Assembly (NCBI GenBank): GCA_964612455.1
Contig: CAZTCB010000001.1
Coordinates: 43,919 to 107,918 of the forward strand
Reading direction: 5' to 3'
Length of the DNA stretch: 64,000 nucleotides
DNA from: an uncultured Subdoligranulum sp.
Lineage (GTDB): Bacteria; Bacillota; Clostridia; Christensenellales; CAG-314
A program made the position numbers and the translations under genes. Positions 35,898 to 50,968 of the stretch are shown here, one piece after another. Under the pieces are notes generated by a model. It did not search any database, was not told where the DNA came from, and worked only from the letters and a program-made list of their open reading frames with translations. Positions within the stretch are counted from its first letter, which is position 1, and each line of letters opens with the position of its first letter.

Positions 35898-35901
35898 CCT
35901 C

Positions 35902-36933
35902 TTAATCCTCCATTTTGTCGAATTGTTTTAAAAAGTTTACGTCGTTTTCAAAGAAAAGTCTTATATCCGGTATACCGTATTTAATCATTGCAAATCTTTC
36001 TAACCCGAAACCAAAGGCATATCCGTTGTATTGCGTTGCGTCGATACCGCAATTTTCAAGTACAAAAGGATGAACCATACCGGCTCCAAGCACTTCGATC
36101 CACCCTGTACCTTTACACAATGAGCACCCTTTGCCGTTGCAAGACGAACAAGTAAGGTCTACTTCTACGCTGGGTTCCGTAAAAGGAAAATACGACGGAC
36201 GAAACCTGACTTTTGTTTCGTCACCAAACAACTTTCTCGCTACTGTTTCCAAAGTACCCTTTAAATCGCACAACGTAAGATGCTTATCAACAACCAATCC
36301 TTCTATCTGATGAAACATCGGCGAATGCGAAGCATCGCTATCGGGACGATAAACTTTACCGGGACAAACTATTTTTAGCGGCGGCTTTTCGCTAAGCATC
36401 ACGCGAGCCTGATTGGGAGACGTATGAGTCCGCAATAAAACTTCTCTCCCCAAAAAAAACGTATCCTGCATATCCCTTGCCGGGTGATCCGAAGGAATAT
36501 TTAACGCCTGAAAGTTAAAATAGTCCGTTTCCGCTTCCGGACCTTCTTTTACCGAAAACCCCAACCCTTCAAAAATTTTGACAATTTGATTTTGTATTAG
36601 TTGGATAGGATGTAGCGTGCCTAACTTTCCTTCGCCTTTATTTACAGTGATATCGACAGACTCGTTGTTTAATTTATCCGCTACGGCTTTAGCTTGCAAA
36701 ACAACCTTGGTTTCCTCCAACGCTGTTTCCATTTCAACTTTCGCTTTATTTAAAAACGCCCCCATTGCGGGCTTGTCCTCTGCCGGCAAATCCCTTAGCC
36801 CTTTAAGCAGTGCGGTAAACGTACCGCTCTTTCCGAAATACTTTATTCTGACGTTATTTAAATCGTCCAAAGAAAGACAGGAATTTACCTCTGAAAAAAA
36901 CTCTTGTCTTAAACATTCTATCTTTTCCTTCAT
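35902..36933 (-). CDS. pheS: phenylalanine--tRNA ligase alpha subunit
   Basis: 343 aa with class II motifs (FRPSYFPFTEPS, GFGLERFAMIKYGI). Confidence 0.96.
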   Translation of the reverse strand: MKEKIECLRQEFFSEVNSCLSLDDLNNVRIKYFGKSGTFTALLKGLRDLPAEDKPAMGAFLNKAKVEMETALEETKVVLQAKAVADKLNNESVDITVNKGEGKLGTLHPIQLIQNQIVKIFEGLGFSVKEGPEAETDYFNFQALNIPSDHPARDMQDTFFLGREVLLRTHTSPNQARVMLSEKPPLKIVCPGKVYRPDSDASHSPMFHQIEGLVVDKHLTLCDLKGTLETVARKLFGDETKVRFRPSYFPFTEPSVEVDLTCSSCNGKGCSLCKGTGWIEVLGAGMVHPFVLENCGIDATQYNGYAFGFGLERFAMIKYGIPDIRLFFENDVNFLKQFDKMED

Positions 36934-36950
36934 ATTTACTCCCTAATACA

Positions 36951-37214
36951 AAAAAATTAACCGTCCCAAATATTAGGACGGCTTAAAATATCCGTGGTAC
37001 CACCTAACTTTACGTTATCGGAAAAAAACACACCGACAACGCCTTGTTACAACCTTTAACGGAGTCAACCGCAAATGGCTACTGTCTGTATAAACGCAGG
37101 TTCACCAAATGTGCTACAAAGTGAATATCTTTCTTACGCCGTAAAATCTCTCACCAACCGATTTTTCTCTCAACGCTACGCAATCGTAAGACTCTTATGC
37201 TTCGTCATCGCTTT
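36951..37214 (-). promoter_or_regulatory. T-box riboswitch leader, Phe (UUC) specifier, with terminator
   Basis: On the minus strand the leader starts AGCGATGACGAAG (K-turn), then has an AGAGA bulge and GGTGAGAG distal loop. The specifier loop is GAAAGATATTCAC, with UUC at 37125..37123. The T-box motif AAGTTAGGTGGTACCACGGA lies at 37010..36991. The terminator is CCGTCC...GGACGG plus a U-run at 36981..36951. Confidence 0.85.
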
Positions 37215-37220
37215 GTTAGT

Positions 37221-37249
37221 AGTATAACAAAGTTTTTTAATATTAGCAA
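37221..37249 (-). promoter_or_regulatory. promoter of the pheST T-box leader
   Basis: Minus strand TTGCTA, 17 nt, TATACT. Confidence 0.55.
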
Positions 37250-37277
37250 GCAATTTTTTTAATCGTTTAAAAATTTT

Positions 37278-37949
37278 TTAAGGCGTCAAATCATAATCTT
37301 GACCAAAAATACTTCCGGCGGCTAAATATGTATCGGGTACTTTCCCGACAATAATACTTTCAGACACCAAAACCGGTGTATTTGTCTTTACCGTAGACTG
37401 AGACGTCGGCAAAACTATTGATACGGTTGCAACCACGTCGAGATAAATCTTATGCCGCGTCTGGTTGATTCCCGCAGACTCAAACTCAGAAACAAATTGA
37501 CATTTTACCGAACCTATAGGCAAAACTTTTACCGTGACGTCAAAACCTTTTCCCGCAAGTAACGGACTGCCCGATAAAGTACCTATTGGTATCTTAACGT
37601 CTTGTTCGCCCATTTTTTCTATATAAGTCTCAGTAGATTGTGCCATGTCTCGCGCAAGCTTATTGATAATCATACTATTGGCGGCAATAAGAGTAATCTC
37701 ATCGTTTGAATTTTTTTCAATAGTAACCAATTCGCCGTAGCTGATAGGCTCAACCATTACCTCAAAAATAGCACTGTTTACGGCGGCCGTCGTCAATGAT
37801 TTTATCTTTGCCTCCGAAAAAGCCACTATAGTAGGAGAAACGGAATTCAGCATATAAATACATACAATCGCTATCGTTAAAACAATCAACGATAAAACAA
37901 TTAATTTTTTCAACTTTTTAAGCGGTTTAGTTTTAATACTTTTAGTCAC
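37278..37949 (-). CDS. yunB: sporulation protein YunB
   Basis: 223 aa with an N-terminal TM helix. The block PIGTLSGSPLLAGKG...SEFESAGINQTRHKIYL matches my recollection of the YunB family. It is adjacent to the spoVA genes. Confidence 0.6.
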   Translation of the reverse strand: MTKSIKTKPLKKLKKLIVLSLIVLTIAIVCIYMLNSVSPTIVAFSEAKIKSLTTAAVNSAIFEVMVEPISYGELVTIEKNSNDEITLIAANSMIINKLARDMAQSTETYIEKMGEQDVKIPIGTLSGSPLLAGKGFDVTVKVLPIGSVKCQFVSEFESAGINQTRHKIYLDVVATVSIVLPTSQSTVKTNTPVLVSESIIVGKVPDTYLAAGSIFGQDYDLTP

Positions 37950-38000
37950 GACGCACCTTTATTTACTATTATATTTATATAAGAATAAATAAGTGCATAT

Positions 38001-38390
38001 TCATATTTGTTTTGTTTGCGGCTTAAAGATAAGAGCGACTAAATATCCGAAAAAAATAGCGGTAGTTATTCCCGTTGCGCAAGCTTTTAAGCCTCCCGTA
38101 AACGCACCTACTATTCCTTCCGATTTAGCTGCTTCAACAGCTCCTTTTACCAAAGCACATCCAAACCCGCTTATCGGCACGCTTGCACCGGCTCCTGCCC
38201 ATTCTATTAAAGGTTGGTAAAGACCAAATCCTTGCAAAATAGCGCCTGCAAGCAAAAAAATCACAAGTATACGACCATTAGTCAAATGCGTACAATTAAT
38301 GATTATCTGACCGATAAGACAAATCCCACCTCCGACGGCAAAAGCTTTTACAAACGTTAAAAACATATCCATAAACAATTTTTCCTCCAA
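38001..38390 (-). CDS. spoVAE: stage V sporulation protein AE (SpoVAEb type)
   Basis: Small membrane protein with AFAVGGGICLIGQ and GAGASVPISGFG motifs. It is the third gene of the spoVAC-D-E set. Confidence 0.8.
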   Translation of the reverse strand: MEEKLFMDMFLTFVKAFAVGGGICLIGQIIINCTHLTNGRILVIFLLAGAILQGFGLYQPLIEWAGAGASVPISGFGCALVKGAVEAAKSEGIVGAFTGGLKACATGITTAIFFGYLVALIFKPQTKQI

Positions 38391-38424
38391 GTAACCTTTT
38401 TTATTTAATTAAACAGCTTACAAA

Positions 38425-39489
38425 TTATTCTTCGTCCGTATCGTCAAGGTCTGCCGTAATTTCAACGAGATGAGCAATAGCGGCAATGCTTTCTCCCTGA
38501 AAAGACGATAAAGGACTCATTAAAGCACCTGTACCAAGCAACAATACGTTTTTTAAACTTCCGTTTCTCAAACTATCCAATATGATACTGTTGGTAACTA
38601 TTGCACTACACGCCGCACCGCTTCCGCCTTGATAAGTTTTTTGTCGCTCAAAATATAGTGCGGCTCCGCAATCGGCATAATTTTTTGACAAATCCATTCC
38701 CTCTCGTAAAGCAAGGTCCATCAATATTTCTTTTCCAAGTTTACCTAAGTCTCCCGTTAAAATCAAATCGTAATCTTCAACGGTTTTGCCGGTGTCGGCA
38801 AAAAACTGTCTTAACGTATCACATGCCGCAGGTGCCATCGCTGCGCCCATATTGTTAATATCTTTTATTCCGAAATCAATAACTCTACCCGGGGTTGCGG
38901 CGGTTATTTTCGGAGAATTTTCGGTCGATTTTTCGGCAGTCAGCAGCGTTGCGCCTACTCCCGTACACGTCCATTGCGTCATCGGCGACCTAAGTACTCC
39001 GAGTTCCAGCGGATAACGGTATTGTCTTTCGGCGGACGAAAAATGACTACCGCTTATACAAATTACGTTTTTATAATAATTATCAACCATAGCCGCACCT
39101 ACGACGAGACTTTCGGCATAAGTGCCGCACGCATTATACAACCCTAAAAAAGAAGCAGGAGTTTTTCTTGCGCTGTAAGATGCCGAAATAATTTGATTTA
39201 AAAGATCTCCGCCAAGTATTGCGTCCAACTCTATCGGTAAAAGCTTCGATTTACTCATAACTCCGTCAATGGCAGTTTCAAACATTTTTCTTTCGGCTTT
39301 TTCAAAAGTTTTTTGATCAAATCTGTCATTAAGAAGAGCAAAATCAAATCTGTCCCCCAATTTTCCTCTTAATTCTTTTGGTCCAACGATTGAAAAACCT
39401 TCGGTAAAGTACACGTTTTCAAAACGCATTGTCCTCGGTCTCATCTCTGTTTCTAAATTTTTTGTCATTTTTACTTTCTTAACCCCCAA
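38425..39489 (-). CDS. spoVAD: stage V sporulation protein AD
   Basis: 354 aa, thiolase-like fold family. It lies between spoVAC and spoVAE as in all spore formers. Confidence 0.85.
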   Translation of the reverse strand: MGVKKVKMTKNLETEMRPRTMRFENVYFTEGFSIVGPKELRGKLGDRFDFALLNDRFDQKTFEKAERKMFETAIDGVMSKSKLLPIELDAILGGDLLNQIISASYSARKTPASFLGLYNACGTYAESLVVGAAMVDNYYKNVICISGSHFSSAERQYRYPLELGVLRSPMTQWTCTGVGATLLTAEKSTENSPKITAATPGRVIDFGIKDINNMGAAMAPAACDTLRQFFADTGKTVEDYDLILTGDLGKLGKEILMDLALREGMDLSKNYADCGAALYFERQKTYQGGSGAACSAIVTNSIILDSLRNGSLKNVLLLGTGALMSPLSSFQGESIAAIAHLVEITADLDDTDEE

Positions 39490-40078
39490 AAAGTAACGTC
39501 AGCAAGGCAATCAACACACTGATGGCAACTCCGTTGACTATAACGGGACCTGCAACTAAAAACATTTTTGCGCCCAACCCGTAAACCATGCCTTCACATC
39601 TGAATTCAAGCGCAGGAGCAACGACTGCGTTTGAAAATCCCGTTATCGGGACGGTACTGCCCGCACCTGCAAAACGCCCCAAAAGGTCGTAAATCCCAAA
39701 TCCCGTACACAACGCCGAAATTAAAACCAACGTCGACGATGCCAATACCGAAGCTTTTTCCTGCGGAAAATCAAGCAACTTATACAGCTCGATAAAGGCT
39801 TGTCCGATAACGCAAATAAAGCCCCCTACAACGAATGCCCAAAACATATTTTTAAAATGGCTTGATTTCGGCGATTTATAAAAAACGTACTCTTTATAGT
39901 TACTTTTATCGATTTTTTCAAACTTTTTACTTGCCTTATCGTAACGTGCGTTTTTCTTCGCCGCAAAAACTATATCGCGTTTTGGCGATTGCTCAAAACT
40001 TTTTTCTTTTTTTAAACTTAAAGTTTTTTCTACCTTTTTGACTTGTTTGTTTTTATCTTCGTTTTTTATATTACTCAT
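39479..40078 (-). CDS. spoVAC: stage V sporulation protein AC with a Lys-rich N-terminal extension
   Basis: The C-terminal 120 aa (FVVGGFICVIGQ...GAGSTVPITGFSNA) are SpoVAC. The start is placed at ATG 40078 (GGAG 7 nt upstream) rather than the track start at 40093. About 70 extra K/E-rich residues precede the conserved core. Confidence 0.8.
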   Translation of the reverse strand: MSNIKNEDKNKQVKKVEKTLSLKKEKSFEQSPKRDIVFAAKKNARYDKASKKFEKIDKSNYKEYVFYKSPKSSHFKNMFWAFVVGGFICVIGQAFIELYKLLDFPQEKASVLASSTLVLISALCTGFGIYDLLGRFAGAGSTVPITGFSNAVVAPALEFRCEGMVYGLGAKMFLVAGPVIVNGVAISVLIALLTLLFGG

Positions 40079-40079
40079 G

Positions 40080-40166
40080 TCAAATCTCCACATTCTCTTT
40101 TATAGATATATACGTTTCCCTGTCCGTTTTATTTCGTTCTATCAACGGTGTTTGCGGTTTTTTCAT
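40080..40166 (-). CDS. candidate 28-codon small ORF coupled to spoVAC
   Basis: GGAGG lies 8 nt upstream of the ATG at 40166. It encodes MKKPQTPLIERNKTDRETYISIKENVEI. Its TGA stop is followed by 1 nt and then the spoVAC ATG. No homology evidence is available. Confidence 0.3.
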   Translation of the reverse strand: MKKPQTPLIERNKTDRETYISIKENVEI

Positions 40167-40250
40167 GTGAATTGCCTCCAGTAAAACTTTTCCCAAAATA
40201 TAAAAAAATAAACGCCAAACCCGATGTTTTAGCGTTTATTGCAATTAAAA

Positions 40251-40997
40251 TTAATCTTCATCCGAAAATTTCTTGCGTATTTTAGTCAGTATTTTATTCT
40301 CCAATCTTGATATCTGTACTTGAGAAACACCAAGTAACTTTGCTATGTCGCCTTGCGTAAAATCTCTGAAATATCTTAAAATAATAATCTTTTTTTCTTT
40401 AGGCGTCAGTTCCTTAATGATTGTTTTCAATATGACACGGTTTATTATATCGTCTTCTTTTTGATTTGACGGAATTTTATCCATCAAACAAAGACCTTTT
40501 TCATCCGTATTATCCGCTTTTTCAAAGAGCGATATCGGCATTTTTGCGCTATCCATTACAAAAACAACTTCTCCCGCGTCGATATTAAATTCTTTAGCAA
40601 TATCGCTTATTGTCGGCTCGCCTCTATTATTTTTTTTAAAATCGTCGACAAAACGACTTATCTTTGACGACAACGTTTTAACACCTCTGCTTACTTTAAT
40701 ATATCCGTCGTCACGTATATATCTTTTAATCTCTCCGATAATCATAGGAACGGCATACGTTGAAAACCTGACGTCAAACTCAATAGAAAAATTGTATATG
40801 GCTTTGAGCAAGCCCATACTTGCTATTTGCATTAAGTCGTTGTATTCTACGCCTTTTCCGACATAACGTTTTACGATACTTTTTATTAAGGGAGTATTCT
40901 CGGTAATTAATCGTTCTTTTGCTGCTTCCTCTCCTTTCTGAGCGCAGACGATTAATTGCATTGTCGTTTCATGATCATATTCCATCTTGACCTTCAC
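40251..40997 (-). CDS. sigF: RNA polymerase sporulation sigma factor SigF
   Basis: Sigma-70 regions 2, 3 and 4. It directly follows spoIIAA-spoIIAB. Confidence 0.9.
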   Translation of the reverse strand: MKVKMEYDHETTMQLIVCAQKGEEAAKERLITENTPLIKSIVKRYVGKGVEYNDLMQIASMGLLKAIYNFSIEFDVRFSTYAVPMIIGEIKRYIRDDGYIKVSRGVKTLSSKISRFVDDFKKNNRGEPTISDIAKEFNIDAGEVVFVMDSAKMPISLFEKADNTDEKGLCLMDKIPSNQKEDDIINRVILKTIIKELTPKEKKIIILRYFRDFTQGDIAKLLGVSQVQISRLENKILTKIRKKFSDED

Positions 40998-41436
40998 CGT
41001 CAGAAAAGCCGAATATTTTTGTCATTTTTACAAGTGTACCTTCGCCGAGCGTGCTCTCAACCTTTAAATCATCCGTAAACGCAGCCATTACAGTAAATCC
41101 CATTCCGCTTCGCTCTTCGGTTTTACAAGTCGTAAAAAATGTTTGCATTGCCTTATTAACGTCACTTATCCCAACACCGAAATCACGTATAGAAATCTCG
41201 GACGTGTTGTCGTCAAAAAGTTTTACACCGACTACGATATCGCCTTTTTGTTTATTTTTATAACCGTGAACAATACAGTTGGTAACCGCTTCGCTGACGG
41301 CTGTTTTAATGTCGCCTATTTCTTCTATAGTCGGATTAACTTGCGCACAAAAAGCCGCCACCGCGCTACGCAAAAAGCCCTCGTTAACCGATTTTGCATC
41401 TATTGTCATACTAAATTGATTTAAGACTGTTTTCAT
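40975..41436 (-). CDS. spoIIAB: anti-sigma F factor (serine kinase) SpoIIAB
   Basis: GHKL kinase motifs (EAVTNCIVHGY, DFGVGI, GMGFTV). Confidence 0.92.
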   Translation of the reverse strand: MKTVLNQFSMTIDAKSVNEGFLRSAVAAFCAQVNPTIEEIGDIKTAVSEAVTNCIVHGYKNKQKGDIVVGVKLFDDNTSEISIRDFGVGISDVNKAMQTFFTTCKTEERSGMGFTVMAAFTDDLKVESTLGEGTLVKMTKIFGFSDGEGQDGI

Positions 41437-41456
41437 TTTTCATCCTCACTTTTTTG

Positions 41457-41765
41457 TTAACTGATTTTTGGCATAATCGTATACAAACCTGCCATACTGA
41501 AAATTTTATCCACAGTACGCGAAACGTTTGTAATAAAAGTTTTACAGCCGATTTTTTTTGCAACTTTATATCTTCCGATAAGCACACCTATACCGGTACT
41601 GTCGGTAAAAGTCAAACGACTAAAATCAAAAATAATTTCTTGCGGTTTATTATCTTCGATTATTTTATCGAGAGCATTTTTAACCTCTTCGGCACAAAAT
41701 TCATCCAATTCGCCGACAAGATTAAACGTAATTTTAAAATTTTTGTTAGAATAATATATTTCCAT
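41457..41765 (-). CDS. spoIIAA: anti-sigma F factor antagonist SpoIIAA
   Basis: 102-aa STAS domain with the phosphorylatable Ser context FTDSTGIGVL. Confidence 0.9.
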   Translation of the reverse strand: MEIYYSNKNFKITFNLVGELDEFCAEEVKNALDKIIEDNKPQEIIFDFSRLTFTDSTGIGVLIGRYKVAKKIGCKTFITNVSRTVDKIFSMAGLYTIMPKIS

Positions 41766-41989
41766 TTTTACCTCGTAACGATTAAAATTTTAATGCCTCC
41801 TAAAGGTATTATTTAGATAAAAAATGTAATAAAATATCAAATTTTGAATTTTTCTTCGCCAAAAATAATATGTATTGCAAATTTACCGCATTATACTTGG
41901 TTTGCATAAAAATATTATTTCTAAAATAGTATCTAAATATAACAAAAAAAGATTTTAAATAAACAAAAAAAATCAATATTATTAGCAAT

Positions 41990-42020
41990 AAAAAAAACAA
42001 GCTCCTCGCATGAGAGCCTG
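41990..42020 (-). terminator. rho-independent terminator downstream of the ydeI-like gene
   Basis: Minus strand CAGGCTC...GAGCTTG stem followed by T8. Confidence 0.65.
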
Positions 42021-42170
42021 TTTTATTGCTAATTATATCTGTATCGATACAATTCTACGTACCAAAATATTTGCCCGCATATATAAAAAGGTAACTACGA
42101 TTATGAAAAATTAAACTAAACTATTTTTTTACTGCTTTGCCGTAATTATTGTTTCCGTAAAAGTATTTTT

Positions 42171-42740
42171 TCATTTATAATATTTATCTATACCGCCGTA
42201 TCCGATGATTATTTTTCCCTCACGAGTACGTTTTATAAAACTATCAAGACGTTTTTTAAACTCGGCAGGACGTTTTCTTGCGGCGTCTATATAGGCAATG
42301 CGAATACGCTTATAGCCATCAGATAATCCCTGATAGCTTTTCCAAGCAACCGCATCCGCTTTTATTGCCTCGAGTATATCGTTCGGGAAAACATACGGAG
42401 TATGAATGATAGACAATACGTCATCTCTCACGCTTGGATAGAGCAGACTGCGCTCGTTAAGCCAAATCAGCCTCTCTATATTAGTTCGCGAATACAGGCT
42501 ATCTTTTTTTCTCGGGACAAAACGCTGTGCACGATGGGTAGAATCTATGTGTTTAATAGTACTATCAATCCAGCCAAAGCAAAGTGCTTCTTCAACTGCA
42601 TCGTTATATAAAAGCGACTTCTCACCCGATGCCTTCATCGGAAAAATAAACCAGATTTCGCTTTGCGTTTCAAAGTTTTCAGCGAGCCACTTTCTCCAAC
42701 TTTGTCTGTCACTCGTATAAAAAGTATTTAAACGTTCCAT
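42171..42740 (-). CDS. YdeI/OmpD-associated family protein
   Basis: 189 aa. WRKWLAENFETQSEIWFIF...EEALCFGWIDS...RFVPRKKDSLYS follows the YdeI/OmdA family pattern. Confidence 0.6.
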   Translation of the reverse strand: MERLNTFYTSDRQSWRKWLAENFETQSEIWFIFPMKASGEKSLLYNDAVEEALCFGWIDSTIKHIDSTHRAQRFVPRKKDSLYSRTNIERLIWLNERSLLYPSVRDDVLSIIHTPYVFPNDILEAIKADAVAWKSYQGLSDGYKRIRIAYIDAARKRPAEFKKRLDSFIKRTREGKIIIGYGGIDKYYK

Positions 42741-42762
42741 ACAGCTTTTCTGTTATTTGTTT

Positions 42763-43853
42763 GTTTTGTTACCATTTAGATTTACACTATACTCAAACTT
42801 ATCCATATTTCACGGTCGTTTCTATCCCGTTTTGTTACCATTTAGATTTACACTATACTCAAACAAACAAATTCACTTTTGCAATACGAGGGCGGTTTTG
42901 TTACCATTTAGATTTACACTATACTCAAACATAATCGGCGCGGGCTTCGTTAATGTCCGTGTTTTGTTACCATTTAGATTTACACTATACTCAAACAAAC
43001 AAATTCACTTTTGCAATACGAGGGCGGTTTTGTTACCATTTAGATTTACACTATACTCAAACATAATCGGCGCGGGCTTCGTTAATGTCCGTGTTTTGTT
43101 ACCATTTAGATTTACACTATACTCAAACGCATACAAAGACAGTCTTATTGGACTATCGGTTTTGTTACCATTTAGATTTACACTATACTCAAACCGCGTA
43201 CAATTCAAAGATTTTATTTATAATGTTTTGTTACCATTTAGATTTACACTATACTCAAACCAAGGAAAATGCGGAATATGAGGGCAAGAAGTTTTGTTAC
43301 CATTTAGATTTACACTATACTCAAACCCGAAACATAATCTTTGCGGATCACACTTGTTTTGTTACCATTTAGATTTACACTATACTCAAACATGCATTCG
43401 TTAGCATACGGTCGGGGGACGTTTTGTTACCATTTAGATTTACACTATACTCAAACGGGGAAAGAAACTGCATTTGCGTCCAAAGGGGTTTTGTTACCAT
43501 TTAGATTTACACTATACTCAAACTTTGCTTGTGCTTTGATTTTTTCAGCCAAAGTTTTGTTACCATTTAGATTTACACTATACTCAAACAGGTAAACTTT
43601 GTTTAATACCCCCCGTTAAGTTTTGTTACCATTTAGATTTACACTATACTCAAACATATGGTTGTGTTTCAGACGCTATACATTAGTTTTGTTACCATTT
43701 AGATTTACACTATACTCAAACTTTTCGTTCATAGTTTTACTCCTTTATCTTGTTTTGTTACCATTTAGATTTACACTATACTCAAACTAAACATACGAAC
43801 GATAAGACTGTATTTCTGTTTTGTTACCATTTAGATTTACACTATACTCAAAC
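42763..43853 (-). CRISPR. type II-A CRISPR array, 17 repeats / 16 spacers (14 unique)
   Basis: There are 17 identical 36-nt repeats. On the plus strand they read GTTTTGTTACCATTTAGATTTACACTATACTCAAAC. The functional minus-strand orientation is GTTTGAGTATAGTGTAAATCTAAATGGTAACAAAAC. Spacers are 29-31 nt. Orientation is fixed by the tracrRNA anti-repeat and its terminator, and by co-orientation with the cas genes. Confidence 0.98.
42865..43128. repeat. 132-bp tandem duplication inside the array (spacer2-R-spacer3-R repeated as spacer4-R-spacer5-R)
   Basis: 42865..42996 is identical to 42997..43128. The spacers AAACAAATTCACTTTTGCAATACGAGGGCG and ATAATCGGCGCGGGCTTCGTTAATGTCCGT each occur twice. 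Confidence 0.95.
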
Positions 43854-44023
43854 CTCAAATTAGATTAATTTCACCTTTTGCGGCATAGTAAACCCACTTT
43901 GGCAACATAATTTTGATTTACACTATATGTATATTATAACATGTTATTTACCAAAAAGCAATAGTTTTATTGCGTAAACATGACATTTAGTTACGTTTTT
44001 TCTTTTTTAAAATCACATAGTTT
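43854..44023 (-). promoter_or_regulatory. CRISPR leader with array promoter
   Basis: AT-rich 170 bp between the csn2 stop and the first repeat. The minus strand carries TTGCTT (43961..43956), a 17-nt spacer and TGtTATAAT (-10 at 43938..43933), giving a predicted TSS near 43926. The leader ends ...AATCTAATTTGAG directly before the first repeat. Confidence 0.6.
43899..43934 (-). repeat. degenerate repeat remnant inside the leader
   Basis: A 15-nt run (43913..43927, TTGATTTACACTATA on the plus strand) differs from the repeat (TAGATTTACACTATA) only at 43914. The flanks are diverged. It lies 45 nt from repeat 17 rather than a spacer length. Confidence 0.7.
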
Positions 44024-44689
44024 CTACACTATTATCTCGCACAAATCGTTATCTATTACGAGATTCATTTCACCGTCGCATTTTGGTTTTAAGCCGCTTT
44101 CAATATCCATGCACATCACTCCGTTATACATCAAATGCTTATACAATTCTTGCAGTTCGTACGTTTCAAAAAAGCTTTTCAGGTTAGCAAACGCTATCAG
44201 TCTAATTCCTAAAAAATGCGTAAGCATCGTTACGTAGTCAATCAAACGCTCTATTCCATTATCTGCTTTGTCTGCTATCATCACGCCGAAAGCTTTGAAC
44301 ATAGCCGTTATCGGCGAGTCTACGTTCCAATCCGTTTCGATCGTGCTTTCAATGTTTAATTTATCCAATAGTGAAAAGAACCTACTATTGATTTCAAGCA
44401 CGTCCTCGGCATACTTTTCATTCGCAATATCGCTTAATTCAGCAAGAAGTTTATTATTCGCTTTTTTATCCGAAAAATCAAGCTCAATCGGGTTATCTAC
44501 GAACACGGCGTTCCTACTCAAATTAATTATCTTATCCTTTTCTGAAAGCACAAAACGCTCTTCGCCAAGCCTTATACTATCCCTCAGCTCAACGTACAAC
44601 TGCCTATATCTTCTTGGGTTTTCCACCGTGATAACGTTCACTTTGTCACTCGTAAATATCGTTTCTATATCGCAATGAGTAAGCTTCAT
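44024..44689 (-). CDS. csn2: CRISPR-associated protein Csn2 (type II-A signature)
   Basis: 221 aa, last gene of the cas operon and overlapping the cas2 stop by 4 nt. Size, position and general sequence pattern match short-form Csn2. Confidence 0.8.
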
Positions 44690-45006
44690 AGCACCACCAG
44701 TCTTTCGTCGGTGTCTATTACTTCGTTATTTTTTCCGCCCGTAACAAACTCCATATTAGCAAACTGCTTTTCGCTAACGGTTAACATTTGGATATTTCCG
44801 CCCTTTACCTTATGACCGCGAACGCTTTCCTTGACCGCCTCGCACACCGTCCCGTTTAGCACGAGCTTGCTATAAACCGACTCCTGTTGCATAATAAATC
44901 CGCTTCGTATAAGAAACTTTCTAAATCGTGTATACGCTCTTCGCTCTTCCGCCGTTTCCGTCGGCAAATCAAAAAAGACTATTATTCTCATAAACCTATA
45001 ACTCAT
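44686..45006 (-). CDS. cas2: CRISPR-associated endonuclease Cas2
   Basis: 106 aa. [17 protein letters not shown]...[21 protein letters not shown] is the canonical Cas2 ferredoxin-fold N-terminus. Confidence 0.92.
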
Positions 45007-45865
45007 AAAATACTAGTTGCGACGGATCACTTTCGTTAAGTGCATTAAAAACTCTCTTGCAATACAAGGATATTGCATCGTTAACAGTGTACGTTTTGCC
45101 CGCAATCTCCACTCTCAAATTAAGCAGATCGGCAAGCTCTTGCTTAACCATAGTAGTAACCTCTCCCTCGCCTCGCATAAACACTTTACGATCAACTATA
45201 ACCCTAAACGGCTCCATTAAATCGCTGCTCAAGTTAAAGTGATTAAACTCGTTGCGGTGGAACAGTCCGCACTGCGTTAGATACCCGTCGGCTATTATTT
45301 CTCTATTAAACGCAGAAAGCAATATTGCGTACCCATAATCAAGCATAGCGTTGTAATTCCGTTCGTCGTCGCTTCTCTTAAAGCCCAGTCCAAACAGGGC
45401 GTTAAAGTACACCTTTGCAGCGTGTCCTTCCCTGTTGGTTATATCTCCGATCTGCACGTCGCAAACATAACCTTTTAGCATTTCAGCTTGTGGGCTGCCC
45501 AGGTCATCCAAAAAACTTGCCTGTTGCGTTATCTTATTCTTCACTATTTCTGCCCAGACTTTGGATTTTATTTCGTTGCTCCATCCGTTCTGTTCTCGCA
45601 CTCTGCCACTGCAATCATGCCTGCCGTACAATGCGTTAAGTTGAGAAATGGGGTTTTGTCTTTCATCGCAAAAAACTATATTTACCTTGTGCTTAACAAG
45701 TTCACACAGCAATACGCCCGTTATAGACACCGCAGTATTCTGCACTATGAGCGTCGAAATCTCATCGATAAACACTCGTTTTATATCCTCGCCACGACAA
45801 ACCAGATATCCCGTTTTATACTCAAGCTTACAACGCTTTTCCACAATCACAACTCGCCAACCCAT
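44996..45865 (-). CDS. cas1: CRISPR-associated endonuclease Cas1 (type II)
   Basis: 289 aa. [20 protein letters not shown] start, and the catalytic-region blocks [16 protein letters not shown] and [16 protein letters not shown]. Confidence 0.93.
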
Positions 45866-45886
45866 TCTATCTCCCGGTTTAGATGT

Positions 45887-48800
45887 TTATAAAAACTTCT
45901 TTACGTCGATAACCTCTTTGTATTGCCCTGTTGGGGATTGGTAAATTATCTTTACGTCTAATTTTTCTATTGATTTACTAATTAAGCATTTACCCACGTC
46001 TTTTCCGAACGGTTTACCTTCACTATCAACAAAAGAGCTCAAATCAAGATTGACAGGATTGCAGTTAAAGAACAGTAATATCTTAGTCAACTGCTCGCAC
46101 TGTGTTTCAACCGACATGTTTTGAAACTGCTCTCTACAATATTTCAAGTTCTTTAATGCATTCTCAAACGCCGTCATACCGCTATATATTTTATCATGTA
46201 GTTTTTTTAAAAACGTATCGTACAGTCTGACGTTTTTAGCCACGTTCACTCCGTCAAGCTCTTCATCGACCATAAACGCTTTTTTAGTTGCCTTTGCTTC
46301 GGATAATTTTTTACACACGTTCATTACTTTTTTGAGATATACACTATCTTCCATATTCAGGAAAAGTTCAACGGCATTACAAAATACCACCTGATGCCCC
46401 GTTTTTCCTCTTATATACATGGGCGTCCCGTTTATCTTTAATAAAGTATTTATACGAATTTTATTCAGTACGATCTGCGGTTTCGTTAATTCGCATTGGT
46501 TTTCGACGTACTCTTTTACTGCGTTAGGATTATGCTCTCGCGTTTTTTCTATCATTACGGGAATGGCTTCCAACGTCAGTTTTACCTCACCTTTTTTACC
46601 TTTGCTCTTTACCAACGCAAAGTACGCCGTTTTGGCTGAATTGTATCCGCCGTATTTGGTAGTGTCGCTAATTGCGCCGTTAGCTTTTAACGGCACTAAC
46701 CCGGCTTTTTTGGTTACCGGTTGCAAGTCAAACAGTTGTCCGCTGTTTTCGCTCACGAACCGCACTACCGAACAGTCGTTCCTATAGTACGTTTTTACGA
46801 TCGTGGGAATATCTATACTCGGTTTCCATGCATCTTTAACGGGTTTCCAAAACAGCCTATAATCCGACCTCGATTCTTCCACCGTTCTGTCCGAGTAATA
46901 TCTCGACAAGTCGTGTCCGTACTCTTCGTTGAATACGTTGCCTGCAACCACGTTGATATAAGCGTCTTTTGCATGGTGCAAATCGTTTAGCTCACGCACT
47001 TTAATGAGCTTTACTCTATACTCCTCGTCAAGCCCTGCTTCTTTGGCATATTCGTCCAGACGATTCTTAAAGTCTGCCGCCTTGCGTGCCTTTGAATACA
47101 CTATCTCCGTTTTGGGATAGAGCGTTTTTAGTATCCTCGCAGTTTCCTTGGTGCTTTGTTGTGTCATTACTATTTGCCTGTTTTCAAACTCGGCAAGCTC
47201 GTCCGTCGTGAGCGGGGTGTTTCGCACAAGCCGACGATACTTCTTTTCACTTATATATCCACGTGTTTTGAGCATCGCCCAAAACTCTTTCATTTTCGTA
47301 CGAATACGTGCATCTAACGGATATTGATCCGTTTTATTCGCATTCACTTGTTTTTTGACAAGCACTATGTTATCTAAACTATCGTCGTTTATTTTCGACT
47401 GCGGATATATATGGTCTATATCATAGAGGTTATCATTGGTCAAATCTTTGAGCTCTATAGACTCGTTCGTGTACATACACTTGCCCATTTGCAAGTAGTA
47501 CAAAAACAGTTTGCGTGAAGAAAATTTACGCTCGTCCGTTAACTCTATTTCTCCTATCCAGTCTCTCTTGTCCAACTCAATACTCTTATATAAAGCGAGC
47601 AATTGCTCCTTGCGTGAAGCCTTGCGTTTACCCTTTTCGTTAGACTCGTCGCCTCTGCTCATTTCGATTATTATCTTTTTAGGTGCATAACCCTTGACTT
47701 TGACTATCTCTTTTATTATAGCCAACATTCGACGTATTGTACGCTTAACCGACGGCGAACAGTACAAATCGTCAATCCTAATACGTCCATCGCAGTTTTC
47801 TTTATTATACTGTTCTATTGCCTTGTCAAAACCCCAGCGGCTTGCCGTTAACGCTTCCGTCATATTTATAGTAAACGCTTGCATTGCCTCTATAACCGTC
47901 AACTTCTTGCCGTTGTACACAGCTTTGGTCGACGTTATGCCGTCGAGAACCTTTTTCGACAATCTACCCCAACCGCTATAACGCAGTTTTGATATTTGAC
48001 GAATTTGGTCTTTTGTCAAGACTTTTCCGTACTCGGCGGTTATGCGTTTTACCAAGCGTTCGTCATCCGACGAGAGCGTTACCCACTTGATTATCTCTTC
48101 ACACATATCCCTACGAGTATCTACCGCATCGCCTATTATCGCCTTGAAATCTATGTATGCCCCTAACGAATTTCGCACTTTGCCTTCGTCAATTCCCGTT
48201 ATAGACGACTTATCTATAAGCCCAATATCGTAACCGTTTATCTTGAGCAATTCTATTATCTTATTTGCCGTTATGTTCTTGTTTCTATGTGCATAATAGT
48301 AAACGATTTTTATCGCTCGCTCGTCTTTTTGTCCGTTTATTTTAATATTATTTATCTCATTTAGTAGCGTCGCTTCGCTATACAGTATTGAGTTTTTAGG
48401 CAGTACGTCCTCCGTAGGTATATATGAACATTTGCACGTCATTTGCTCTATAAATGCATCCTCGCTCTTGTCAAGATCTATTACTTGTTCAAAATTCCAC
48501 GGCAACGCCCTAACATGCTCCATACCGACTTTTCTCACTGCCCAATGCCCCTGCGTAGGTCCTACATAGTACGGAATTCGGAAAGTCAATAACAACTTTA
48601 TCTTGTCCGCCATCGTAATACCGTTCTCATCTTTTTCTGACAGAAACTCGTATCGCTCGCTTGCCTTTTGCAGAATTTTGTCCAGCTCAATCTCGTGGAG
48701 CTGGTACGGGATTATGCCGTTGCCCGACTCCATTTGCCGCGGTAAAAACTCGCCTCGCTCGTAACGCTCTTTTAGTGTTTTGACGTGTTCGTCAGTTTCT

Positions 48801-49933
48801 CCACTCTCCACTATTCTACCTGCAAAAGCAAAAAATTCCTCCTTCCCTCCTTTGAAAATATGCTTTTCGAGGAATTTGTAAAAGTCATCCTTTTTGCACT
48901 TACTATAACTCTTGTGCTTATCCATACCGATGTAATCGGCATAGTTATTATTCATCTTTTCCTGTCGCCTAAACACTTCATGCTTTTTATTCGGACAATT
49001 TTCTTTTATATAGCGTTTGAGCAAGGCAAGATCGCTTTTGTGTGTTTCGTACCGATTAACTCGTGCTACAGACAGGCACGAAAACTCGCCGAGAATATTA
49101 ACGAGCTTTGACCAGTCGTATATCGCCTTTATGCTGTCGAGAAGATAATCGTCGGCGGTGACCGTTTTAACCTTGACAAACTGCTCGTCTGTCATTTGCT
49201 TGAAATCGATCTTTTTGTATTTGTCGTCTAATCCGCTAACATCGCTAACGCAGTACAGCTCATCAATGCTGCAGCTATTGCCTGACATCAACTTTAATAC
49301 TGCCGACGCCTGCTTGTCTTTTTTGTCTATTCCGAAAATTTCAGTCAAACGCTTGACTTTTTCCGTACCGCTCATTTTTTCGCTTTTTAGTACACTTATT
49401 GCGGAAATCAGGTTACGATCGTTCTCTCCAAGCTCAAAAGGAACGGCAAAATCACCCGTTTCTTCGCTTGCGTTATTTTCAAAATACGAGTTAATATGTC
49501 TGAATGAAGTCTTTATCGTTTCGGGATCGCTTACGGAAAAGCTTTGACCGGCAAACAGAAAATGCCCCCGGTTCTTGATTATATGATGGCAAGCTATGTA
49601 CAACAACCGTATGTCTTCCGGCGGCGCTTCCATTAGACTTTTGCGGAGATGTGACACCGTAGGATACCTTTTGAAATACTCCTTATCTGTATACCCATTG
49701 TCCCCAAAAAGTATATACTTCGTCGTTATGCGATTATCTTTGTCCTCTGGCAAGAGTTTACCGTCATTTAGACGTATGAAAAACGTATCGTCGACTTTAC
49801 TTATCTCGTCGGCGAACAACGACTGCAGTAGGTCGAGCCTCGTGCGTATGCGACTTATTCTCCTTCGGGAAGTGCGAAAAACTCGACGTTCTTCTGCCGT
49901 ATGCGCCTCGTCGAAAAGATAACTACCCCACAA
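45887..49933 (-). CDS. cas9: Cas9, main 1348-aa ORF (TTG start in the track), lacking the RuvC-I motif because of an upstream frameshift
   Basis: The arginine-rich bridge helix RRVFRTSRRRISRIRTR, RuvC-II IIIEMSRG, HNH DIDHIYPQS...N...N and RuvC-III HHAKDAYINVVAGN are all present. The N-terminal 45 codons are in another frame (see 49923..50060). Confidence 0.93.
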   Translation of the reverse strand: MWGSYLFDEAHTAEERRVFRTSRRRISRIRTRLDLLQSLFADEISKVDDTFFIRLNDGKLLPEDKDNRITTKYILFGDNGYTDKEYFKRYPTVSHLRKSLMEAPPEDIRLLYIACHHIIKNRGHFLFAGQSFSVSDPETIKTSFRHINSYFENNASEETGDFAVPFELGENDRNLISAISVLKSEKMSGTEKVKRLTEIFGIDKKDKQASAVLKLMSGNSCSIDELYCVSDVSGLDDKYKKIDFKQMTDEQFVKVKTVTADDYLLDSIKAIYDWSKLVNILGEFSCLSVARVNRYETHKSDLALLKRYIKENCPNKKHEVFRRQEKMNNNYADYIGMDKHKSYSKCKKDDFYKFLEKHIFKGGKEEFFAFAGRIVESGETDEHVKTLKERYERGEFLPRQMESGNGIIPYQLHEIELDKILQKASERYEFLSEKDENGITMADKIKLLLTFRIPYYVGPTQGHWAVRKVGMEHVRALPWNFEQVIDLDKSEDAFIEQMTCKCSYIPTEDVLPKNSILYSEATLLNEINNIKINGQKDERAIKIVYYYAHRNKNITANKIIELLKINGYDIGLIDKSSITGIDEGKVRNSLGAYIDFKAIIGDAVDTRRDMCEEIIKWVTLSSDDERLVKRITAEYGKVLTKDQIRQISKLRYSGWGRLSKKVLDGITSTKAVYNGKKLTVIEAMQAFTINMTEALTASRWGFDKAIEQYNKENCDGRIRIDDLYCSPSVKRTIRRMLAIIKEIVKVKGYAPKKIIIEMSRGDESNEKGKRKASRKEQLLALYKSIELDKRDWIGEIELTDERKFSSRKLFLYYLQMGKCMYTNESIELKDLTNDNLYDIDHIYPQSKINDDSLDNIVLVKKQVNANKTDQYPLDARIRTKMKEFWAMLKTRGYISEKKYRRLVRNTPLTTDELAEFENRQIVMTQQSTKETARILKTLYPKTEIVYSKARKAADFKNRLDEYAKEAGLDEEYRVKLIKVRELNDLHHAKDAYINVVAGNVFNEEYGHDLSRYYSDRTVEESRSDYRLFWKPVKDAWKPSIDIPTIVKTYYRNDCSVVRFVSENSGQLFDLQPVTKKAGLVPLKANGAISDTTKYGGYNSAKTAYFALVKSKGKKGEVKLTLEAIPVMIEKTREHNPNAVKEYVENQCELTKPQIVLNKIRINTLLKINGTPMYIRGKTGHQVVFCNAVELFLNMEDSVYLKKVMNVCKKLSEAKATKKAFMVDEELDGVNVAKNVRLYDTFLKKLHDKIYSGMTAFENALKNLKYCREQFQNMSVETQCEQLTKILLFFNCNPVNLDLSSFVDSEGKPFGKDVGKCLISKSIEKLDVKIIYQSPTGQYKEVIDVKKFL

Positions 49934-50060
49934 CGCTTTTCCTCCCCTGCCTTAACACGTTGTACCGTGCACTGGTTACCGTCCAACCGATAGAGTTTGT
50001 TCCACCATCGATTCCTATGTAGTACTCTTGTTCATTATCTTTTGATTTTTTTTCGTTCAT
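49923..50060 (-). CDS. cas9: Cas9 N-terminal fragment carrying RuvC-I (45 codons, out of frame with the main ORF)
   Basis: AAGGAG RBS and ATG at 50060. It encodes MNEKKSKDNEQEYYIGIDGGTNSIGWTVTSARYNVLRQGRKSVVG*. IGIDGGTNSIGW corresponds to SpCas9 IGLDIGTNSVGW, which contains the catalytic Asp. Confidence 0.85.
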   Translation of the reverse strand: MNEKKSKDNEQEYYIGIDGGTNSIGWTVTSARYNVLRQGRKSVVG

Positions 50061-50063
50061 CGC

Positions 50064-50092
50064 TTGACTTCTCCTTTGAATAGGGTTATACT
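50064..50092 (+). promoter_or_regulatory. tracrRNA promoter, overlapping the cas9 RBS region on the other strand
   Basis: TTGACT (50064..50069), 17 nt, TATACT (50087..50092). Confidence 0.65.
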
Positions 50093-50097
50093 GTAGT

Positions 50098-50203
50098 TGT
50101 TACTTTTAGATTTACACTATTAGTTCAAATAAGTTAGTAACATACCGCCGATTTATTCGGTTGCACCGCGTGGTGCTTCTTTACCGCCTTGTGCGGTTTT
50201 TTT
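50098..50203 (+). ncRNA. tracrRNA: tracrRNA
   Basis: The anti-repeat GTTACTTTTAGATTTACACTATTAGTTCAAAT is complementary to the minus-strand repeat. It is followed by AAGTTAGTAAC, then hairpins CCGATTTATTCGG and GCACCGCGTGGTGC, and the terminator CCGCCTTGTGCGG plus T7. The 5' end is inferred from the promoter. Confidence 0.85.
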
Positions 50204-50270
50204 ATTCAATCCCGCTATCAATACCTAAAATAATCTAATTTCATTTTTTGTTTCCTAACGCAGGATATGT

Positions 50271-50299
50271 TTTATAAACATTCATTGTATAACGTCCAA
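50271..50299 (-). promoter_or_regulatory. candidate cas9 operon promoter located beyond the tracrRNA gene
   Basis: Minus strand TTGGAC (50299..50294), 17 nt, TATAAA (50276..50271). It would give a ~200-nt 5' UTR antisense to the whole tracrRNA. No comparably good minus-strand promoter is visible between 50061 and 50203. Confidence 0.4.
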
Positions 50300-50377
50300 T
50301 TATTAGCTATCCGTTGGTCATTATATCACAAAATCATGTATTTTGCAATATATTCGCCATTACTACCTTGCATTTTT

Positions 50378-50415
50378 GGAAAAGAAAAAAGGTCTGATAC
50401 TTTTTGTATCAAACC
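50378..50415 (-). terminator. terminator of the tRNA operon
   Basis: Minus strand GGTTTGATAC-aaaaa-GTATCAGACC followed by TTTTTTCTTTT. Confidence 0.75.
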
Positions 50416-50427
50416 TATGCTTTCTTA

Positions 50428-50512
<85 letters not shown>

Positions 50513-50521
50513 ATAATATAA

Positions 50522-50597
50522 TGGAGCTGGTGAACGGAATCGAACCATCAACCTATTGATTACAAATCAATTGCTCTGCCAGTTGAGCTACACCAGC
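50522..50597 (-). tRNA. trnT: tRNA-Thr (TGT)
   Basis: 76 nt. Acceptor GCTGGTG/CACCAGC, anticodon stem ATTGA/TCAAT and loop UUUGUAA. Confidence 0.88.
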
Positions 50598-50619
50598 AAA
50601 TCTCACCAATATAAAAAAT

Positions 50620-50695
50620 TGGTGCCTCGGGGCGGAGTTGAACCACCGACACGGGGATTTTCAGTCCCCTGCTCTACCAGCTGAGCTACCGAGGC
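50620..50695 (-). tRNA. trnF: tRNA-Phe (GAA)
   Basis: 76 nt. Acceptor GCCTCGG/CCGAGGC, anticodon stem GGGGA/TCCCC and loop CUGAAAA. Confidence 0.9.
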
Positions 50696-50699
50696 ATTT

Positions 50700-50776
50700 T
50701 GGCGACCTGGAAGGGACTCGAACCCTCGACCTCTAGCGTGACAGGCTAGCGTTCTAACCATCTGAACTACCAGGCC
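50700..50776 (-). tRNA. trnD: tRNA-Asp (GTC)
   Basis: 77 nt. Acceptor GGCCTGG/CCAGGTC, anticodon stem CTAGC/GCTAG and loop CUGUCAC. Confidence 0.88.
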
Positions 50777-50807
50777 AAATATAGATTGATGCGCTCGGTT
50801 GCGTTAT

Positions 50808-50884
50808 TGGTGGGCCTTCAGGGACTCGAACCCCGGACCAATCGGTTATGAGCCGACCGCTCTGACCAACTGAGCTAAAGGCCC
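50808..50884 (-). tRNA. tRNA with CAT anticodon (elongator Met or lysidine-modified Ile2; not an initiator)
   Basis: 77 nt. Acceptor GGGCCTT/AAGGCCC and anticodon loop CUCAUAA. It lacks the GGG/CCC anticodon stem of initiator tRNA. The GGGCC start resembles Ile tRNAs. Confidence 0.85.
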
Positions 50885-50891
50885 TCATTTG

Positions 50892-50968
50892 TGGTCGGGG
50901 TGAAGAGACTCGAACTCCCGACCCCATGGTCCCAAACCACGTGCGCTACCAAACTGCGCTACACCCCG
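50892..50968 (-). tRNA. trnP: tRNA-Pro (TGG)
   Basis: 77 nt. Acceptor CGGGGTG/CACCCCG and anticodon loop UUUGGGA. Confidence 0.88.

Follow-up and report, generated by a model that had tools for sequence, protein, structure and literature searches.

A recent single-base insertion has probably turned cas9 into a pseudogene within a type II-A CRISPR locus that is otherwise intact

The 64-kb window analysed here (the whole stretch of 64,000 nucleotides of contig CAZTCB010000001.1 from an uncultured Subdoligranulum sp.) contains a type II-A locus of clustered regularly interspaced short palindromic repeats (CRISPR), in which the cas9 gene is split between two reading frames. The question is whether this split is an error of sequencing or assembly, a genuine loss of the gene, or a shift in spite of which a Cas9 protein is still made. 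Most likely it is an ordinary recent knock-out mutation rather than a special expression signal. Specifically, we consider it probable that a recent, real-looking +1 G frameshift has made cas9 a pseudogene in a type II-A system that is otherwise intact.

The first of the two open reading frames (ORFs), of 45 codons, occupies 49923..50060 on the minus strand. It opens at ATG 50060, which is preceded at a spacing of 10 nt by the native ribosome-binding site AAGGAG (50071..50076, minus strand), reads MNEKKSKDNEQEYYIGIDGGTNSIGWTVTSARYNVLRQGRKSVVG with the RuvC-I motif IGIDGGTNSIGW, and closes at TAG 49925..49923. The terminal six residues of its product, RKSVVG, are out of frame. The second ORF (45887..49933, minus strand) is uninterrupted over 1348 codons and covers the bridge helix, REC, RuvC-II, HNH, RuvC-III and PI regions. 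It begins with TTG 49933..49931, in the +1 frame relative to the 45-codon ORF, and its frame is blocked upstream by TAA 49954..49952. Only one stretch of 26 nt (49926..49951, minus strand) is free of stops in the upstream frame and in the body frame alike, and any correction of the frame by one event must fall within it. This overlap contains a run of four G (49944..49947), a run of four A (49937..49940) and the Shine-Dalgarno-like string GGAGG (49945..49941). Deletion of one base at the junction yields a protein of 1390 aa, and the break lies at codon 39 of the 1390, 116 nt into cas9. All these features, namely the start codon with its ribosome-binding site, the stop, the split frames, the overlap, both runs and the spacing between GGAGG and TTG, had been described in the original prediction, and all are borne out by the sequence. 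A continuous cas9 frame is thus missing from the window (45 plus 1348 codons) and is found, at 1390 aa, in a sister contig.

The sister contig identifies the additional base. Apart from the 1348-aa product itself, its 90% protein cluster contains only P0121, whose length of 1390 aa is exactly that predicted for the repaired protein. P0121 is encoded on the Logan contig SRR10277276_7315 (L001) from the run SRR10277276 of a neighbouring sample, in the same cas1-cas2-csn2 and spore-gene surroundings, and the contig is 99.2% identical to the window across the cas locus. An alignment of the 301 nt around the junction shows three substitutions and a single indel between the two sequences. L001 reads CAGGGAGGAAAAGCG and the window reads CAGGGGAGGAAAAGCG, so that the junction aligns as GGCA-GGGAGGAAAAGCG in L001 against GGCAGGGGAGGAAAAGCG in the window. 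The indel falls in the G-run at 49944..49947 (minus strand), where the window has G4 and the intact sister G3, that is, one extra G on the coding strand (C4 when read on the plus strand). The A4 run does not differ between the two. Seven orthologues and solved Cas9 structures run colinear with the G3 version across the junction; by this comparison G3 is the ancestral state, and the window has gained one G (+1). Since the intact L001 has G3 and the same A4, the defect is the change from G3 to G4, A4 is ancestral as well, and the A-run is ruled out as the lesion. The original prediction had placed the lesion within 49926..49951, where the alignment of orthologues indeed keeps the frame junction, but had blamed the A-run for the extra base, which is a G. 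The repair that it proposed, deletion of one A leading to RQGRKALW, misses the ancestral sequence, which is RQGGKALW. For the same reason its remark that both broken genes of the window lie at A-runs fails for cas9.

The repaired protein looks like a complete Cas9. All of the Cas9-BH, REC, HNH, RuvC and PI domains are recognized above the curated Pfam cut-offs (PF16593, PF16592, PF13395, PF22702, PF16595). The nearest solved structure is the Cas9 9jwk (E = 3.4e-211), and the similarity to the Cas9 of Streptococcus pyogenes (SpCas9) is distant (phmmer E about 1e-113). Across the junction the repaired protein aligns without gaps with 9jwk, SpCas9 and the seven orthologues (52-61% identity). The pattern xGG[KR]xLWG is present at the junction in 7/7 orthologues, and the intact sister protein reads ...NVLRQGGKALWGSYLFDE... 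there. Asp18 aligns with the RuvC-I residue Asp10 of SpCas9 and lies on the separate 45-codon ORF. The motifs IIIEM, DIDHIYPQS, NANK and HHAKDAY align with SpCas9 E762, D839/H840, N863 and H983/D986, respectively; thus the RuvC-II Glu, the HNH Asp-His and Asn, and the RuvC-III His and Asp are all kept. The RuvC-I motif of this Cas9 lineage is DGGT, compared with DIGT, DMGT or DVGT in relatives. The nearest Cas9 beyond its own 90% cluster, P0002, is only 61% identical, and the protein is a distinct orthologue. A scan of the GTDB species representatives yielded only Cas9s of 41-44% identity, from metagenome-assembled genomes of uncultured Clostridia and Christensenellaceae.

The comparison of the two alleles also bears on the age of the lesion. 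Between the repaired cas9 and the sister allele there are 13 synonymous and 11 non-synonymous codon changes, and the stop codon is changed as well (TAA/TGA). The rates of non-synonymous (dN) and synonymous (dS) substitution are 0.0033 and 0.014, and their ratio is 0.23. No second disruptive change was found in cas9 relative to the sister, and dN of cas1 and csn2 against the sister is zero. Judging from these rates, purifying selection has acted on cas9 through most of the period after the two strains separated, which is consistent with a recent frameshift. When the 11 replacements were polarized with an outgroup, three looked derived in the lineage of the window and none clearly in that of the sister; these numbers are too small to show relaxed selection.

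The dS values between the window and L001 (compared over 34837..50493) vary along the region. They are 0.014-0.03 for the cas genes and 0.035-0.08 for most flanking core genes, with spoVAE (0.011) as the exception among the latter. This hints that the cas locus may have been shared, or have swept, at a later date than the chromosome around it.

The preferred reading of the split is then as follows. After the separation from the 99.2%-identical sister, a single G would have been inserted into the G3 run at 49944..49947. Ribosomes starting at the native ATG would now reach TAG 49925..49923 after only 45 residues, leaving the 1348 codons of the body in the +1 frame. The strain would most likely lack full-length Cas9 and its CRISPR interference would be dead, while the rest of the system appears not to have decayed. 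The string GGAGG with the following TTG seems to have been created neither for the frameshift nor by it, and would at most permit a fortuitous termination-reinitiation.

Several points weigh against the preferred reading. The dN/dS of 0.23 is based on only 24 substitutions. Within the collections searched, the locus occurs in only two strains, one mutant and one intact: scanning the JGI metagenome contigs with the junction pattern gave 0 matches, a Cas1 look-up for further strains returned only the two contigs already known, and an exact look-up of the 1348-aa product (P0001) gave no further location. The NCBI record and the Logan contig that repeats the split probably derive from the same run, so that an artefact at the level of reads, or a mixture of G3 and G4, is possible. 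Finally, the loss of function is deduced from the sequence, and a residue of activity could come from restart at TTG or from a low level of +1 slippage.

Of the alternatives, the one that survives best, although it is unlikely, is that the extra G is a mistake in the consensus, in which case the true sequence would be G3 and cas9 would be intact. Indeed, the change is a difference of one nucleotide in a homopolymer, the record of the window is probably a metagenome-assembled genome, and the sister also shows such a one-nucleotide difference, A7 versus A8, which breaks another gene. On the other hand, a Logan contig of the run SRR10277277 (L002), in which the CRISPR array is collapsed, matches the window at 100% identity in the blocks on either side of the array (6649 and 3931 nt), and it contains the same split. 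Both products of the split, the 45-aa one and P0001, are called on L002 and have exact entries in NCBI and in Logan. Since the NCBI record and the Logan assembly, made by two different pipelines, agree base for base on G4, an artefact of the assembler is unlikely. Besides, a run of four bases is far below the length that short-read platforms and assemblers usually miscount. Apart from A8/A7 at window position 42504, all other indels between the window and the sister are intergenic homopolymer differences. There are 91 G/C runs of at least four bases in forty long ORFs of the window; however, these ORFs were chosen as open frames of at least 200 aa with no reference for truncation, and the runs show no more than that the window is not riddled with indels, which speaks only weakly against a miscount. 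The homopolymer assembly error suggested in the original prediction is thus weakened, since this other assembly has G4 and not G3 or A3, and what is left of it is an error at the level of reads. Among the three explanations offered there, genuine recent inactivation is the best supported, given the agreement with Logan, the intact sister, the absence of a second lesion and the dN/dS of 0.23.

A less probable alternative, which we regard as a long shot, is that cas9 is mutated yet useful. Ribosomes would stop at TAG 49925..49923 and reinitiate at TTG, producing a 1348-aa Cas9 devoid of RuvC-I. Such a protein would bind guide RNA and DNA, and its role could be to nick DNA with HNH alone, to repress, or to help in spacer acquisition. 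The geometry is suitable. The start-like site at 49931..49945 (minus strand) consists of GGAGG 49945..49941, a 7-nt spacer and TTG 49933..49931. The TTG lies 11 nt back within the upstream ORF that ends at TAG 49925..49923, and the core Shine-Dalgarno (SD) string is at the optimal distance from it. Gene callers choose this very TTG, and all downstream domains are intact. Moreover, restarts after premature stop codons are classical in lacI and in T4 rIIB.

However, the intact sister has the same string GGAGG-AAAAGCG-TTG, and there its codons GGA GGA AAA GCG TTG encode G-G-K-A-L, a part of the conserved GG[KR]xLWG. In three more distant orthologues the two glycines are encoded by GGC GGT and the leucine by CTG, TTA or TTG. 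By codon comparison, the SD-like string results from the synonymous codons that this lineage happens to use, and it is older than the frameshift; it is not an adaptation to the frameshift, because it is already there in the intact allele. Such motifs are also frequent by chance: GGAGG followed after 5-9 nt by ATG, GTG or TTG occurs 18 times in the window, and 12 of the 18 instances open no long ORF. An evolved restart signal, as the original prediction had it, is therefore rejected in favour of ordinary ancestral coding sequence. There is no sign of selection for the restart, and a single strain carries the split.

The product itself speaks against a useful restart as well. It would begin at the equivalent of about Leu47 of SpCas9, lacking residues 1-42, among them the catalytic Asp. 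The two N-terminal RNase-H strands of RuvC (the equivalent of SpCas9 1-46) would be missing, and their loss probably destabilizes the nuclease lobe. At best the protein would be RuvC-dead, and it is likely to be unstable. In the lack of the catalytic Asp it would functionally resemble the D10A nickase derived from SpCas9. The latter, however, is a point mutant with an intact fold, and here about 42 residues, including two core beta-strands, are gone. That the fortuitous SD and TTG drive efficient reinitiation and yield a natural HNH-only nickase or DNA binder is more improbable still. If it were true, the restart Cas9 might retain spacer acquisition dependent on the protospacer-adjacent motif or repression guided by CRISPR RNA; alternatively, the 45-residue peptide might complement it in trans, similar to split Cas9.

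The weakest alternative is recoding, in which a +1 slip of the ribosome within 49926..49951 restores full-length Cas9 in meaningful amounts, and we give it hardly any credence. The overlap does contain slippery sequences, and the SD-like GGAGG is near. A slip on GGG-A would restore exactly the wild-type RQGGKALW, and a slip on AAA-A, the one that the original prediction had assigned to Lys-tRNA, would produce a G39R variant. However, the shift is absent in the sister and in all seven orthologues, each of which has a single frame, and the same A4 stands in the intact sister. The local RNA fold is no more stable than that of shuffled controls (z = -0.24), and neither A-site codon is rare (AGG 6.8 and AGC 11.9 per 1000). 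The likeness to programmed +1 frameshifting in prfB ends with the need for a +1 shift and the SD-like purine stretch near potential slip codons. Where the prfB paradigm has an SD spacing of about 3 nt, the spacing here is 0 nt for AAA and about 12 nt for the GGG-TAG site. Unlike prfB, the locus has no conserved shift, no stop or slow codon at the slip site at the right distance from an SD or with a supporting structure, and no regulatory logic, and an intact allele exists in the sister strain. Thus, nothing suggests that either slip would be more efficient than background, and the proposed slip on AAA-A has no conservation, structure or rare codon in its favour. Transcriptional slippage or phase variation can be dismissed in a sentence: four-base runs are too short for either, and the tract is only G3/G4, compared to the 7 or more units that are typical of phase-variable tracts in the 5' coding regions of contingency genes.

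The rest of the preferred reading concerns the intact remainder of the locus. The genes cas1 (44996..45865, minus strand; 289 aa; PF01867), cas2 (44686..45006, minus strand; 106 codons; PF09827) and csn2 (44024..44689, minus strand; 221 aa; PF09711) adjoin cas9 and are all intact. The presence of csn2 marks the locus as type II-A. They are followed by a CRISPR array (42763..43853, minus strand) with 17 identical 36-nt repeats and 16 spacers of 29-31 nt, 14 of them unique. A putative trans-activating CRISPR RNA (tracrRNA) is divergent from cas9 (50093..50203, plus strand). It contains an anti-repeat (50096..50130), three hairpins and a T7 tail, and is preceded by the promoter-like sequence TTGACT-17-TATACT at 50064..50092. 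The 35-nt anti-repeat and the minus-strand repeat transcript form a predicted duplex of -32.3 kcal/mol. An Rfam search of the window matched no tracrRNA family and found only the six upstream tRNAs. The terminal T-run of the putative tracrRNA is T7 in the window and T8 in the sister contig.

Within the array there is an exact duplication of two repeat-spacer units (42829..43092), so that the spacer 42865..42894 equals 42997..43026, and 42931..42960 equals 43063..43092. This is either an internal duplication or an effect of assembly; both Logan contigs collapse the array entirely. No spacer matches any other place in the 64-kb window at up to 6 mismatches, so that no self-targeting is seen there that might have favoured the loss of cas9. 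BLAST of the array against INPHARED produced one weak match, Dulem virus 39 (E = 0.1). It was rejected as a source of protospacers, as it matches no spacer at up to 6 mismatches and the aligned stretch is repeat-like by eye. Three spacers have no exact match in IMG/VR.

Directly upstream of the CRISPR-Cas locus there are six tRNA genes (Pro, Met, Asp, Phe, Thr, Tyr; 50428..50968, minus strand). A tRNA cluster is a typical landmark of integration or variable regions. At the other side, the array is adjoined by a DUF8412/OmdA gene (42171..42740, minus strand; 189 aa), which is intact in the window, with A8 at 42504, and is split by A7 into 87 + 81 aa in the sister (L001 6706..7274). Thus each strain has one broken accessory gene at the CRISPR locus. 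The second broken gene of the original prediction, described as pilin-like, was not located; the type IV pilin motif G-F-T-L-I-E is absent from all six frames of the window. The flanking genes spoIIAA, spoIIAB, sigF, spoVA, yunB and pheST include spore genes which, together with the GC content of 38.7%, point to an endospore-forming Firmicute.

The domain order of this Cas9 (RuvC-I, bridge helix, REC, RuvC-II, HNH, RuvC-III, PI) is that of SpCas9, and the cas1-cas2-csn2 layout with a divergent tracrRNA is that of the S. pyogenes-type locus. A precedent for the loss of such a gene is provided by house-finch isolates of Mycoplasma gallisepticum, in which cas9 was naturally lost by point nonsense and frameshift mutations and four truncated forms of MgCas9 (V1-V4) reached fixation after the host jump (PMC11893278). 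In both cases a single-nucleotide nonsense or frameshift change affects some strains, close relatives have the intact gene, and the locus is otherwise present. Unlike MgCas9, the gene considered here is broken at the extreme 5' end, so that nearly the whole protein remains one open frame with a start-like site, and it is represented by one mutant and one intact strain. The case is thus a further instance of the known inactivation of cas9 at the level of strains, and its special feature is the position of the break.

With so little of cas9 cut off at the 5' end, gene callers continue to predict an almost full-length "Cas9". The locus is best annotated as type II-A with cas9 as a frameshifted pseudogene, and not as encoding a 1348-aa Cas9, and Cas9 mining should use the repaired 1390-aa sequence, which equals the sister allele P0121 except for 11 substitutions. 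A new question would be raised only if the truncated product were made and active. Otherwise the locus would present a snapshot of very early CRISPR decay, in which interference has been lost by a single base, and the adaptation genes, the putative tracrRNA and the array are still pristine.

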